64,000 bases of DNA from Dehalococcoidia bacterium (lineage in GTDB: Bacteria > Chloroflexota > Dehalococcoidia > SM23-28-2): positions 1,173,702 through 1,237,701 of the forward strand of contig CP070630.1 in assembly GCA_020356025.1 (NCBI GenBank), written 5' to 3'. A program made the translations under genes and the position numbers. This document shows positions 8,140 through 18,689 of this stretch, in pieces; positions within the stretch are counted from its first letter, which is position 1; every line of letters starts with the position of its first letter. The notes below the pieces were generated by a model. That model was not told the origin of the DNA and searched no databases. It was given only the letters and a program-made list of their open reading frames with translations.

Positions 8140-8949
8140 ATGAGCGGCGTCAGCTCCCGTCTCGAAGCGTCTGCGTGGCCAGGGCTATCGCTTTTCTCGG
8201 TCGTTGTCCTGCCGGCGTACACTGCCGCTATCATCACGGCCGAGATCGTGACAGCGTTGGTCGACGCTCGTTGGGGCGTGGGCCTTCACGTAGCCATTCT
8301 TTGGGTCCTGCTTGTCCACTTCGCCTGGGCCACGGAACGTTCAGAGGCCAAGCTCTGCCTGGCACTGGGCCTAGCGCCTCTCACCCGCATCCTTAGCCTA
8401 GGCATGCCCCTGGAGGATGTGGATCTTGTCTACTGGTTCCTGATCGTGGGCGCGCCCATGATCGTGGCCGCCTTCCTGGCTGCGCGCACTCTGGGGCTGA
8501 CCCGGTACGACCTCGGGTTGACTGTCCGGGCCATCCCTGTGCAGCTGCTAATAGGCGCCACGGGCTTGGCGCTGGGCGTCGCGGAGTACTTGATCCTGAA
8601 GCCTGAGCCGCTCATTGACGAGCTGACCTGGCAGCAAGCCTGGTGGCCCGCACTGATCCTGCTGGTCGCCACAGGGTTCGGTGAGGAGCTGATTTTCCGA
8701 GGGGTGATGCAGTCCGCGTCGACAGACGCCCTGGGCAAGGCGACAATCGTCTACGTGGCTATCGTGTTTGCTGCACTCCACGTGGGGTACAAGTCAGTGC
8801 CAGATGTGGCCTTTGTGTTCCTTGTGGCGCTGTTCTTTGGCTGGGCAGTGGCTAGAACCGGGTCGTTGCTGGGCGTGACCTTGTCTCACGGAATAGCCAA
8901 TGTGGTTCTCTATGTCATAGTGCCGTTCACGACCATCGCCGTCGACTGA
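8140..8949 (+). CDS. CPBP family intramembrane glutamic endopeptidase (CAAX protease-like)
   Basis: Motifs GFGEELIFRGV, FAALH and LSHGIANV in a multi-helix protein. I prefer ATG 8140 (MSGVSSRLE..., GGAAGG upstream). The track start at 7894 would add an Arg/Gly-rich N-terminus that does not look protein-like. Confidence 0.8.
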   Translation: MSGVSSRLEASAWPGLSLFSVVVLPAYTAAIITAEIVTALVDARWGVGLHVAILWVLLVHFAWATERSEAKLCLALGLAPLTRILSLGMPLEDVDLVYWFLIVGAPMIVAAFLAARTLGLTRYDLGLTVRAIPVQLLIGATGLALGVAEYLILKPEPLIDELTWQQAWWPALILLVATGFGEELIFRGVMQSASTDALGKATIVYVAIVFAALHVGYKSVPDVAFVFLVALFFGWAVARTGSLLGVTLSHGIANVVLYVIVPFTTIAVD

Positions 8950-9028
8950 TCGGGGTTGCCTGAACCAGGTTGACACCTAGACGCTACCGAGGCTTAGTAG
9001 GCATTACGCATCCCTACACCGATTGGGA

Positions 9029-9056
9029 CAAAAACGACTCCCTCACCGAGGGAGTC
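9029..9056 (-). terminator. Rho-independent terminator downstream of the small membrane protein gene
   Basis: On the minus strand: GACUCCCUC-GGU-GAGGGAGUC (perfect 9-bp stem) followed by GUUUUUG. Confidence 0.6.
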
Positions 9057-9089
9057 AAATCCATCTCTAGACGACACTCTTGCGCCGCT

Positions 9090-9329
9090 CTAGAGCACTT
9101 CCACCACCTTGGCCGCCACAATGGCCGTGAAAACCATCAGAAGCGGAATGATGGCCACGTTGAGGCCGCGGCCAAACCGCTGCAATCGGGGCGCGTCAGT
9201 CGCGCTGGCGAGCTCTTTGGCCACCAGCAGGCTGATCAACGCTAGCACAGCGATAAGCCCCAGCGACGCCGCGAAGCCCGCCGTGCTGGTAACCGTCGAA
9301 ACCGTCGTTGTCGTAATGCTCGAAACCAT
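9090..9329 (-). CDS. Small membrane protein (two hydrophobic helices, Thr/Ser-rich N-terminus), hypothetical
   Basis: Sequence MVSSITTTTVSTVTSTAGFAASLGLIAVLALISLLVAK...AIIPLLMVFTAIVAAKVVEVL. Followed by a terminator. The start is uncertain (9371 in the track, or ATG 9329). Confidence 0.4.
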   Translation of the reverse strand: MVSSITTTTVSTVTSTAGFAASLGLIAVLALISLLVAKELASATDAPRLQRFGRGLNVAIIPLLMVFTAIVAAKVVEVL

Positions 9330-15388: not shown

Positions 15389-16060
15389 ATGCGCTTATTT
15401 CTGGATACGGCGAGCGTCGATGAGATCCGAGAAGCGGCAAAGCTGGGTGTTATCTCGGGGGTGACCACCAACCCCACGCTTTGGGCCAAGGCCGGCGGAG
15501 GCGACTACCGGGATGTCGTTGTGGAGATCTGCGGCATTGTGGATGGGCCTATCTCTGCCGAGTGCCTCTCCCGCGATGTGGAGGGACTGGTGGAGGAGGC
15601 GAAGCGCGTCGCCGGCTGGCACCCGAACGTGGTGGTGAAGATACCCATCGATGAGGCGGGGCTGGAGGCGACCTCCCGCCTATCCAAGGAGGGGGTCAAG
15701 GTAAACATGACCTTGGTCTTCTCCGCCAATCAGGCTCTCCTGGCCGCCCACGCAGGGGCGACCTTTATCAGCCCGTTTGTCGGGCGCCTGGACGATGTGG
15801 GGCACGATGGCATGGCGGTGGTGGCGGACAGTGTGCAGATCCTGGAGCGCTATCACCTGCCGAATCAGGTGCTGGCGGCCAGCCTGAGGCATCCTCTCCA
15901 TGTGATCGGGGCTGCGAAGGCCGGCGCTCACATCGCGACGATGCCCTACAGCGTGCTCAAAGGGATGCTTCGCCATCCCCTGACCGACGTGGGGATCGAG
16001 CGCTTCCTGGCCGACGCTGAGAAGGCGGCGAAAGCGGCGCGGTCGGCGGGTAAGCGCTGA
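15389..16060 (+). CDS. tal: Transaldolase / fructose-6-phosphate aldolase family (short type)
   Basis: [36 protein letters not shown] and [13 protein letters not shown]. Confidence 0.9.
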
Positions 16061-16497: not shown

Positions 16498-16519
16498 CCC
16501 GCTCGCCGGAGAAAAGGAG

Positions 16520-16552
16520 AGGCCGCTGGGAATGCTCTCAGCGGCCTTTTTG
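16520..16552. terminator. Rho-independent terminator between convergent genes (clear for the plus strand, plausible for the minus strand)
   Basis: AGGCCGCUG-(10 nt loop)-CAGCGGCCU, a perfect 9-bp stem followed by UUUUUG. It lies 22 nt after the Dx-2 stop and 20 nt after the minus-strand FTR-like stop. Confidence 0.65.
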
Positions 16553-16572: not shown

Positions 16573-17001
16573 TTATGGCTTCTTGGGTGCGCGCTTGCTC
16601 TTGGGAAGCCTAGCTGCTTCCTCCGCGGCAGGGAAGAGGCTCTCTCCCAGAGGTGCCACCTCTCCCAGGGTGCTGGGCGCTATCTCCCCCGTCTCCTCGT
16701 AGCGGCGAAGAAACTCTTCGCTCACGAAGAACATTCATATGCAGAAGCCATCGCGGGCGATGTCCTCGTGATGCCTCTCGCAGGGGCAGATCTTCTTGCG
16801 ATCCTCCACGGGATCGCCGCTGAGGGTCATTCAGGGGCAGTAGAGGCGGCCGTGGTTGACGAGGTTCTTGGCCAGGCCCCGCTGGATGCTGTCCACGGTG
16901 TCCGCGAGGGGGAAGAACTGGTAGGGCCCACGCTCGACGTAGCGCTCGGACATGCGCTTGGCGCGCTCAAGGGCCTCCTCGAAGGTGACCGTCTTCTCCA
17001 T
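16573..17001 (-). CDS. Ferredoxin:thioredoxin reductase catalytic-subunit-like protein with two in-frame UGA codons (predicted Sec57 and Sec89)
   Basis: Absent from the track because it is split by TGAs. My codon-by-codon translation is MEKTVTFEEALERAKRMSERYVERGPYQFFPLADTVDSIQRGLAKNLVNHGRLYCP[TGA]MTLSGDPVEDRKKICPCERHHEDIARDGFCI[TGA]MFFVSEEFLRRYEETGEIAPSTLGEVAPLGESLFPAAEEAARLPKSKRAPKKP*. It reproduces the FTR CPC...CPC...CHC(M)LF layout. GAGAGGAG SD lies upstream of ATG 17001, and TATAAT sits at 17034..17039 on the minus strand. Confidence 0.7.
16705..16721 (-). promoter_or_regulatory. SECIS-like hairpin downstream of UGA-2 (16735..16737)
   Basis: mRNA GCGAAGA-GUU-UCUUCGC: perfect 7-bp stem, GU in the loop, also starting 13 nt after the UGA. 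Confidence 0.5.
16798..16817 (-). promoter_or_regulatory. SECIS-like hairpin downstream of UGA-1 (16831..16833)
   Basis: mRNA GCGAUCC-CGUGGA-GGAUCGC: perfect 7-bp stem, GU in the loop, starting 13 nt after the UGA. Confidence 0.5.
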
Positions 17002-17129
17002 AGTGCTCCTCTCTAGCCACGCAGATCGAGTCTATTATAGCCTCTCTTGGTGGGCAAAGAGCTTCCAACAATGCTAAGATGCTCCAGCCAGCGCAATCGA
17101 GGAAATGATTCCGCTGTAGGGGGATTGGC

Positions 17130-18689
17130 TTGACCGCTACTCTCGTGCTACACAATGCGCGCGTGATCACGATGGAGCCGCGGCAGCCGCGCGCCCAGGC
17201 TGTCGCTGTCGAGGGCGGGCGCATCCTGGCGGTCGGCTCGGATGAGGAGATCCGTCGCCAGGTTAGAGGCGCTCAGGCCGAGGCCATCGACTGCCGAGGG
17301 CAGGCGGTGCTTCCCGGCTTCATCGACGCGCACTGCCACGTGCTGGCGTATGCCGCCAACCTCCTCGCTGTGGACTGCAGCCCAGATGCTGTATCGTCCA
17401 TCGGCGACATCCAGGCGGCTGTGCGGCGGCAGGCGGAGGCCACTCCCGCTGGGCGCTGGATCCGCGCCGTCGGCTACAGCGAGATCGACCTGGCCGAGGG
17501 ACGCCATCCCACTCGCTGGGATCTTGACCTCGCGGCACCGGATCACCCGGTGCGGCTGATCCACCTTAGCGGCCACGCATGCGTCCTCAACAGCCTGGGC
17601 CTGCATCTGTGCGGCATCGGTGGGGAGACTGAGGAGCCGCCCGGCGGGTACATGGAGCGTGACGCCGCCAGCGGCGAGCCCAGCGGTCTCCTGCTGGAGA
17701 TGAACGAGCTGGTGAGGCGGGCTGTTCCTCCTCTGAGTTGGGAAGAGCTTGCTGAGGGCGTGCGCCTGGCCAGCGGGCGTTTCCTGACCGCAGGCATCAC
17801 GTCTGTTGTGGACGCGAGCCACACGAACGGGCCGCCAGAGTGGGAGCTTCTGCGACGGCTGTGTGAAGAGGGGCATCTGCTGCCCCGCCTGACGGCTATG
17901 GTGGGCTTCGACCATCGAGAGGCAGCCGGCCGCTGGAAGGAGGACGAAGGCGGCGGTGGCTGCGTTGAGTTGGGGGCGGTGAAGATCGGCATCAAGGAAT
18001 TGGGGGAGGAGATCTACCCCGAGGAGGATGTCCTGGCAGAGATGGTGGCCCAGGCCCACGCTCAGGGCTGGCAGGTGTCCATTCACGCCGTGGAGGAACG
18101 GGCGGTGGCTGCCGCTGCTGGCGCCCTGTCGCGGGCGCTGGCGCAGCTCCCACGCCAGGATCATCGCCATCGCATCGAGCACTGCAGTGTCTGCCCGCCG
18201 GCGCTGGCGGAGCGGATAGGGAAGGCGGAGGTGATGGTGGTCACTCAGCCGTCGTTCCTCTACTACAACCTCGACCGCTACCTGCGGCAGGTGGCGCCGC
18301 AGAGGCAGGCCTACCTCTATCCCCTGCGCTCGCTCCTGAGGGCGGGCGTTCGCTTGGCTGCCGGCTCTGACTGCCCGGTGGTCGGGCCGGAGGTCGTTGC
18401 TGGGCTGCATGGGGCCGTCGCGCGTCGCAGCAAGGGGGGTCAGGAGGTCGGGGGGGAGGAGAGCATCTCGATCGAGGAGGCGCTGGGGCAGTACACGACG
18501 GGAGCGGCCTACGCCTCCTTCGCTGAAGGGGAGCGGGGCAGCATCGCTCCGGGCAGGCTGGCCGATCTGGTGGTGCTGTCGGGCGATCCGATGGCCTGCC
18601 AGCCGGGCGAACTGCTGGCTCTGCGACCGCAGATGACTATCGTCGGAGGGCGGGTGGTCTGGCGCGCCGAGGAATCGGGCGCCGCGTAG
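17130..18689 (+). CDS. Amidohydrolase family metal-dependent hydrolase (YtcJ-like, amidohydrolase 3)
   Basis: LHNARVITMEP...AVAVEGGRILAVGSDEE...PGFIDAHCH, later SIHAVE and AAGSDCPV. TTG start. Confidence 0.85.
   Translation: MTATLVLHNARVITMEPRQPRAQAVAVEGGRILAVGSDEEIRRQVRGAQAEAIDCRGQAVLPGFIDAHCHVLAYAANLLAVDCSPDAVSSIGDIQAAVRRQAEATPAGRWIRAVGYSEIDLAEGRHPTRWDLDLAAPDHPVRLIHLSGHACVLNSLGLHLCGIGGETEEPPGGYMERDAASGEPSGLLLEMNELVRRAVPPLSWEELAEGVRLASGRFLTAGITSVVDASHTNGPPEWELLRRLCEEGHLLPRLTAMVGFDHREAAGRWKEDEGGGGCVELGAVKIGIKELGEEIYPEEDVLAEMVAQAHAQGWQVSIHAVEERAVAAAAGALSRALAQLPRQDHRHRIEHCSVCPPALAERIGKAEVMVVTQPSFLYYNLDRYLRQVAPQRQAYLYPLRSLLRAGVRLAAGSDCPVVGPEVVAGLHGAVARRSKGGQEVGGEESISIEEALGQYTTGAAYASFAEGERGSIAPGRLADLVVLSGDPMACQPGELLALRPQMTIVGGRVVWRAEESGAA

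Follow-up and report, generated by a model that had tools for sequence, protein, structure and literature searches.

Homologues of the catalytic subunit of ferredoxin:thioredoxin reductase (FTR) were among the seven new selenoprotein families that Zhang and Gladyshev described in 2008 using Global Ocean Sampling (GOS) metagenome data (PLoS Genet, PMC2398784). One of the GOS reads, JCVI_READ_1093012271142, encodes an FTR homologue with two selenocysteines (Sec), which occupy both redox-active positions (PMC2398784). The family is listed as COG4802 FtrB with the motif CxU in a 2022 review, and as NF041072 (CxU, 2 Sec, example MCS5647748.1) in a 2026 review (PMC13188914). No experimental or biochemical study of the double-Sec FtrB family was found in the literature. 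The gene discussed here lies on the minus strand of a 64-kb stretch (64,000 nt, hereafter the window) of contig CP070630.1 from a Dehalococcoidia bacterium, and its reading frame is interrupted by two TGA codons.

From the sequence evidence, with a probability of roughly 0.93, the product of this gene would be an FtrB double-selenoprotein, in which both UGA codons are decoded as Sec by SelB and tRNA-Sec and each insertion is directed by a hairpin 13 nt further downstream. The earlier note on this DNA, made from the letters alone, had reached the double-Sec assignment but did not place the family among the described bacterial selenoproteins. On the latter point it has to be corrected: given the 2008 description, the two reviews and the existing NF041072 model, double-Sec FtrB is not new, and the finding, although correct, rediscovers a family that is already known and curated.

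Family membership and active-site residues

Translation of the minus strand from 17001 to 16573 confirmed the 142-codon frame that had been reported, with TGA at codons 57 and 89 as the only internal stops. The conceptual protein contains the local motifs LYCPUM, KICPCERHH and GFCIUMFF (U denotes TGA). With Cys at both sites the product scores 66.3 bits against Pfam FeThRed_B (PF02943, cutoff 22) and 217.2 bits against the NCBIfam model NF041072, 'FtrB family double-selenoprotein' (206.5 bits with X at both sites, cutoff 160). The latter is an equivalog model and the match spans its positions 1-121/121. Both scores bear out the proposed homology to the FTR catalytic subunit. NF041072 is characterized by two in-frame UGA codons, at the redox positions of CPx and CxU, and these are codons 57 and 89 here. 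The cysteine framework of PF02943 (CPC / CPC / CxC) is likewise present, and the ligands C55, C72, C74 and C87 are invariant in the 81 sequences that were compared (the window gene and 80 relatives, see below).

In the alignment to 1dj7_A (crystal numbering), residues C55, U57, C72, C74, C87, I88 and U89 correspond to Cys55, Cys57, Cys74, Cys76, Cys85, His86 and Cys87, respectively. The Ile at position 88 is also invariant in the 81 sequences. In FTR itself, the ligands of the [4Fe-4S] cluster are Cys55, 74, 76 and 85 and the redox-active disulfide is Cys57-Cys87, as reported by Dai et al. (cited in PMC2398784). The TGA codons hence fall on just the two disulfide positions, i.e. the second cysteines of CPC and CHC in the alignment to FTR, while all ligand positions have remained Cys. 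This is what the sequence had suggested at first sight, except that the two middle ligands are C72 and C74 rather than C71 and C73. Among solved structures, 4tpu (E = 4.5e-11) and 7pwe (E = 4e-10), both of them single-subunit FTR-like proteins, match best. The classical catalytic chains from plants and cyanobacteria match only weakly (7bzk, 9e-4; 1dj7, 0.04).

Conservation among relatives

A scan of GTDB with one genome per species yielded at least 198 species-level Chloroflexota genomes with a relative of the gene. The best 80 of these 198 relatives, with 54-93% protein identity, were compared with the window gene. All 80 are from Chloroflexota, most of them labelled Dehalococcoidia and some SAR202. 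When the DNA is read directly, both codons are TGA in 81/81 sequences, much more than chance would produce, and the frame contains neither other stops nor frameshifts. The most conserved segments of the gene are found in the protein just past each TGA, where MxLSGDPxEDRKKICPCxRHHEDI and MFFVSEEFLR are almost invariant. The nearest full-length relatives that turned up, at 34-48% identity, contain Cys at both columns (YCPC, CxC); an exhaustive search of representative proteins found no close full-length relative. The features expected of a bacterial selenoprotein are thus observed: the UGA is conserved in orthologues with the frame continuing beyond it, and homologues have Cys at the aligned position. 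The stops are not scattered over the gene, and the comparison of orthologues that had been proposed earlier comes out in favor of Sec. The nearest Cys homologues do not possess the ~40-residue C-terminal tail of the window protein, a tail that is specific to the double-Sec family.

In two metagenomic variants, ~90% identical to the window gene, the first site is TGC and the second TGA (P0002, P0003; L083:397-830, L084:428-860). A recent switch from Sec to Cys, or else strain polymorphism, could account for them. The first hairpin remains fully intact in both and no relaxation was seen. Since the switch is too recent at ~90% identity, the variants are uninformative on whether hairpin 1 relaxes once its UGA is lost. 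L083 also has a small gene for Desulfoferrodoxin_N (PF06397), which lies ~250 nt downstream and on the other strand.

In public databases the family is represented rather poorly. A homologue search over 5.8 billion proteins returned full-length forms with 'W' at both sites, fragments ending at residue 56 or 88, and fragments starting at residue 90. The 'W' entries are a gene-caller artefact, generated by applying a TGA=Trp table to short contigs. Faulty entries were noted in the protein clusters P0001 and P0004-P0011 and in the fragments P0013, P0014, P0015, P0023, P0024, P0041 and P0047, and one fragment of a double-Sec FtrB carries the name 'sugar phosphate isomerase/epimerase'. Such fragmented or 'W'-bearing FtrB entries will mislead automated annotation.

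Two matched SECIS-like hairpins

A stem-loop with a G in its apical loop, as in a bacterial Sec insertion sequence (SECIS), is found shortly 3' of the UGA at both sites (Table 1). The distance between UGA and stem is identical for the two, and the geometry of the hairpins is matched. Across the alignment, the loop of hairpin 1 has the consensus NGUNGA.

The codons that build the stems are under visible constraint. At site 1, the wobble base of Gly62 is C in 81/81 sequences, compared to an entropy of 1.55-1.76 bits for the other Gly codons, and that of Glu66 is G in 81/81. Asp63 and Asp67 are encoded by GAU (70/81 and 61/81), against the GAC bias of the gene (Asp80 is GAC in 70/81). At site 2, Glu95 is GAA in 65 sequences, Glu96 is GAG in 81/81 and Leu98 is CUU in 79/81. 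Phe97 is UUU in 65 of the 81, whereas Phe91 and Phe92 are UUC in 70. The run GAA-GAG-UUU-CUU at this site is favored against the GC bias.

Over the 150-column alignment, standard pairs occupy 93.8% of the cells, versus 23-55% when the partners are slid by 1-3 columns. Five genomes are off-register at site 2 and, through compensatory changes, re-form an equivalent stem that is shifted by one base, namely UCGAGCG-AGUU-CGCUCGA in three genomes and CGGAGG-AGUU-CCUCCG in the other two. In the three-genome group the new stem is accompanied by E95S and L98A, a pair of amino-acid changes. It is these comparative data, and not the folding of a single sequence, that settle the structure of both hairpins.

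RNAalifold also proposed a 10-bp long-range helix (ACGAGGACAU/AUGUUCUUCGU) between 16769..16760 and 16734..16724 (A2 columns 71-80 with 106-116), which encloses UGA89. Its variation consists only of G-U-compatible transitions at two-fold degenerate sites. Conserved amino acids alone could account for the helix; alternatively, it may prolong the second SECIS as a lower stem.

Decoding of the two UGA codons

In the window, which has a G+C content of 63.5%, TGA terminates pyrG, tal and purQ, and all three encode complete domains. TGA is therefore an ordinary stop in this organism, and the view that the recoding is local and the genetic code not reassigned is upheld. Other window genes end in TAG or TAA, and 10/80 orthologues of the FtrB gene themselves terminate with TGA. 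The window was also scanned for further read-through genes, i.e. TGA-interrupted open reading frames (ORFs) that have a Cys close by and a hairpin downstream, but beyond the FtrB sites only noisy, unconvincing candidates were obtained. ARAGORN reported no tRNA gene of any kind across the 64 kb.

Independent evidence for Sec decoding in the clade is provided by GrdA (glycine/sarcosine/betaine reductase selenoprotein A; PF04723), which is encoded close to FtrB in three Chloroflexota genomes (Table 1). It scores 188 bits against NF040748 (cutoff 130), and the TGA lies in CFVU, the motif canonical for GrdA. A further sign of Sec use in the clade is the conserved TGA of a glutaredoxin-like gene in related loci (see below). 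The proximity of GrdA hints at a link of FtrB with the reductive glycine/betaine pathway. BSepDB counts 49 and 46 selenoprotein genes in two Dehalococcoidia metagenome-assembled genomes (MAGs), which puts both into the top ten of bacteria by selenoprotein number (PMC13326102). Over ~13 kb (roughly 12.2-26 kb) the window runs collinear with two Dehalococcoidia MAG contigs, the nucleotide identity being 87-90%, and its source is therefore a Dehalococcoidia bacterium.

Three other explanations of the two TGA codons have to be weighed. Two in-frame stops within 142 codons, in a gene that public gene callers split or truncate, might suggest a decaying pseudogene that has acquired two nonsense mutations. 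The conserved in-frame UGA, the Cys homologues and the use of TGA as an ordinary stop elsewhere speak against both decay and a reassigned code. Decay in particular is effectively refuted and its probability is close to nil, as each of the 81 sequences (54-93% identity) has TGA at these two codons and no other stop or frameshift, the protein 3' of both stops is near-invariant, and the stops coincide exactly with the redox-active positions. The initial argument that both redox cysteines are UGA-encoded Sec and not the product of decay is sustained by this TGA record, by the Cys-containing relatives and by the constrained hairpins. It might also be imagined that UGA is read as Trp, Gly or Cys instead of Sec, through a changed code or a suppressor tRNA. 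Several database entries indeed give W at both sites, and the Sec machinery was not seen in the DNA examined. The W is the artefact of gene calling on short contigs described above, however, and the complete pyrG, tal and purQ and the TGA-terminated orthologues are at odds with a changed code. Each UGA is followed by a position-specific hairpin, the homologous positions hold Cys, the usual partner of Sec, and the same lineages encode GrdA, a classical selenoprotein. Reading by another amino acid is consequently considered very improbable.

An equally small chance is given to UGA57 being a normal, regulatory stop. The gene would then yield a 56-residue peptide, with the downstream frame translated rarely or separately. 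Bacteria insert Sec inefficiently, and the loss is compounded by two serial UGA codons. The 56-residue product would, on the other hand, contain a single cluster ligand out of four. Moreover, strong purifying selection acts over the whole 142-codon frame and in phase across both UGAs, which shows that the full-length protein is what selection maintains.

Several observations weigh against decoding of both UGA codons as Sec with the help of the two hairpins. Neither tRNA-Sec (ARAGORN) nor selA, selB or selD (tblastn with E. coli queries, E <= 1e-5) was found in the window or in the 80 related loci, ~1.3 Mb in all. The Sec machinery is thus unlinked to the gene, and its presence in the genome of the window is assumed from relatives. 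The folding of the single sequence is unexceptional (z = -0.06 and -1.82 for the two hairpins), and the minimum-free-energy fold of the window sequence at site 2 favors a different small neighboring hairpin. In the 150-column alignment no two-sided pair changes in a fixed register were detected, because the partner bases are locked by invariant amino acids. Rfam returned no family that matches the region, only noise far below the gathering scores; this carries little weight, bacterial SECIS models in Rfam being unchecked. Finally, homology is the basis on which the enzyme is assigned its diselenide and cluster as well as its electron donor and substrate.

Predicted mechanism

By homology with FTR, the double-Sec enzyme would bind one [4Fe-4S] cluster via Cys55, Cys72, Cys74 and Cys87. 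As Sec57 and Sec89 occupy the positions of the Cys57-Cys87 disulfide in FTR, the oxidized enzyme is expected to contain a Sec57-Sec89 diselenide beside this cluster. A ferredoxin-type donor would split the Se-Se bond by passing two electrons, one after the other, through the cluster, and Sec89 would transiently interact with a cluster iron. The nucleophile that attacks the small redoxin substrate, at its disulfide or selenenylsulfide, would be the exposed Sec57. In classical FTR, His86 has a catalytic role. The low-pKa selenol may remove the need for an equivalent of this residue. Chemically, a diselenide next to a [4Fe-4S] cluster is unusual; it is predicted for very few natural proteins, this family included, a point that was already made in 2008.

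Gene neighborhood and a candidate redoxin partner

The start codon is preceded by a good Shine-Dalgarno-like sequence, as stated earlier (Table 1). The upstream TATAAT that had been pointed out is present at 17039..17034, 33 nt upstream, but a consensus scan found no sigma-70 promoter on the strand of the gene (no usable -35). The claimed terminator fares similarly. It is a real 8-bp GC-rich hairpin (stem 16546..16539 with 16528..16521), but it has a 10-nt loop and its tail, TCTCCTTTTC, is a weak T run. No terminator was reported by the consensus scan on this strand; the loop exceeds the length that the scanner allows.

Table 1. Position of the FtrB gene, its signals and neighboring genes (window coordinates unless a related locus, L, is given).
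Feature	Position	Strand	Remarks
FtrB-family double-selenoprotein gene (predicted)	16573..17001	-	142 codons, ATG 17001..16999, TAA 16575..16573; from frame, Pfam, NCBIfam
UGA codon 57, predicted Sec57	16831..16833	-	equivalent to Synechocystis FTR Cys57, exposed redox-active cysteine; from 1dj7_A alignment, orthologues, Cys relatives
UGA codon 89, predicted Sec89	16735..16737	-	equivalent to Synechocystis FTR Cys87, cluster-proximal redox-active cysteine; from 1dj7_A alignment, orthologues, Cys relatives
SECIS-like hairpin 1	16798..16817	-	GCGAUCC-CGUGGA-GGAUCGC; 7-bp stem, 6-nt loop, G at loop position 2; 13 nt past UGA57
SECIS-like hairpin 2	16705..16721	-	GCGAAGA-GUU-UCUUCGC; 7-bp stem, loop GUU; 13 nt past UGA89
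Shine-Dalgarno-like AGGAG	17006..17010	-	4 nt 5' of ATG; seen in sequence
Possible intrinsic terminator	16511..16546	-	GGCCGCUG, 10-nt loop, CAGCGGCC, then UCUCCUUUUC; seen in sequence
tal	15389..16060	+	neighbor on one side of the FtrB gene; pyrG beyond
Amidohydro_3 gene	17130..18689	+	divergent neighbor; YqeY, 7TM-HD protein and purQ beyond
Grx/NrdH-like gene (example)	L044:10435-10686	+	PF00462; TGA in G-U-G-P-C-H motif
GrdA near FtrB	L035:~8660-9130	+	TGA 8787; ~1-2.5 kb from FtrB in the three Chloroflexota genomes
GrdA near FtrB	L052		TGA 975
GrdA near FtrB	L063		TGA 4924

None of the genes next to FtrB in the window points to its substrate, and a gene for the variable (alpha) subunit of FTR was not found among them. 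In the clade of the window, no thioredoxin or ferredoxin gene adjoins FtrB. In 42 loci from relatives with 54-70% identity, a gene for a ~80-residue protein with the glutaredoxin (Grx) fold (PF00462, 52 bits) is located directly 3' of FtrB on the same strand. These loci include L027, L032-L034, L036-L039, L041, L042, L046, L047, L049-L051, L053-L062 and L064-L079. Two more loci, L035 (9483..9289) and L063 (6602..6390), possess a divergent Grx-like neighbor, which brings the number of genomes to 44. The median distance between the FtrB stop and the TGA of the Grx-like gene is 52 nt, so that the two genes are nearly contiguous. Every copy has its TGA in a G-U-G-P-C-H motif, and a conserved 7-bp hairpin (GUGAAAG-UGUAY-CUUUCAC) follows 15 nt past the UGA. 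The protein scores below every curated NCBIfam cutoff, the closest being YruB/NrdH-like. The Grx-like gene was not found in the window (tblastn), nor in the examined flanks of the close relatives L001-L026.

In this large sister clade of the window lineage, the Grx-like selenoprotein is likely an operon partner or a substrate of FtrB, plausibly a dedicated one. It is further proposed, tentatively and at slightly less than even odds, that FtrB is co-transcribed with this Grx/NrdH-like selenoprotein in a large Dehalococcoidia/SAR202 clade, and that the two act together as a dedicated relay, all-selenium and with three Sec. Electrons would pass from ferredoxin to the [4Fe-4S] cluster, then to the diselenide, and from there to the selenenylsulfide of the Grx-like redoxin. 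If true, the relay names the physiological substrate of a family that has been known since 2008 as a catalogue entry only. The lineage of the window would in that case rely on an unlinked partner. No discussion of the FtrB/Grx-like pairing was found in the searchable literature.

Two further genes were observed in the related loci. A conserved ORF of ~116 aa lies directly 5' of FtrB on the same strand (L078:9610-9961, plus strand), with an equivalent in 42/81 loci, in the more distant clade. It has conserved Cys residues (CEC...C), matches no Pfam or NCBIfam model and does not occur in the window. The other gene encodes a ~250-aa fusion of glutaredoxin with a DinB-family domain and contains an in-frame TGA in G-U-F-S-C (L076, minus strand, TGA 5415; L065:6348-6121, minus strand). 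This fusion, which is below every curated NCBIfam cutoff, may be another selenoprotein.

Comparison with known systems

The classical FTR catalytic chains (1dj7, 2pu9, 7bzk) belong to the same Pfam family as the window protein, and the six Cys/Sec positions correspond one to one. By homology, they also share the [4Fe-4S] cluster beside a redox-active dichalcogenide. The similarity is weak, however (E = 0.04 to 9e-4), and the window protein differs in having Ile88 in place of His86 and Sec for both redox residues. Whereas the classical enzymes come from cyanobacteria and chloroplasts, the organism of the window is non-photosynthetic and has no variable-subunit gene nearby. Neither hallmark of the classical heterodimeric FTR, i.e. 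the variable subunit and the His86 in CHC, is thus found here. The window protein is best regarded as one that would work like the FTR core, not as a classical FTR.

More closely related are the archaeal and bacterial single-subunit reductases, represented by 4tpu and 7pwe (the latter deposited as 'Ferredoxin-thioredoxin reductase subunit B'), which share the CPC...CPC...CxC spacing and the xFVS motif with the window protein. The entry 4tpu, deposited as 'Rubredoxin', is presumably the ferredoxin:disulfide reductase (FDR) of M. acetivorans. A literature search on 4TPU, 7PWE and FDR gave nothing useful. The third motif is devoid of His in all three proteins, being CYC in 4tpu and 7pwe (Tyr) and CIU in the window protein (Ile). 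In contrast to the latter, both structures have Cys at the two redox positions. The additional parts are different as well: 4tpu has a fused rubredoxin domain, 7pwe an N-terminal extension and the window protein its ~40-residue C-terminal tail.

A pair of Sec residues replacing a redox-active Cys pair, with formation of a diselenide, is also reported for SelL (Shchedrina et al. 2007, cited in PMC2398784). SelL is eukaryotic and has an unrelated thioredoxin-like fold, no Fe-S cluster and a eukaryotic SECIS. Its two Sec are part of a single UxxU motif, while those of the window protein are 32 residues apart.

With NF041072 and the FTR selenoproteins of 2008, finally, the window protein shares the family and the two Sec at the redox-active positions, and nothing essential differs. 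The 2008 FTR selenoproteins were two unassigned marine reads, whereas the present gene is seen in a 64-kb genomic context from Dehalococcoidia. It adds a member to a curated family and is not a discovery in itself. What is added here is how widely the family occurs in Chloroflexota, a matched pair of SECIS-like hairpins and the likely Grx-like partner that adjoins FtrB in 44 genomes, which together make a biochemical test easy to design.

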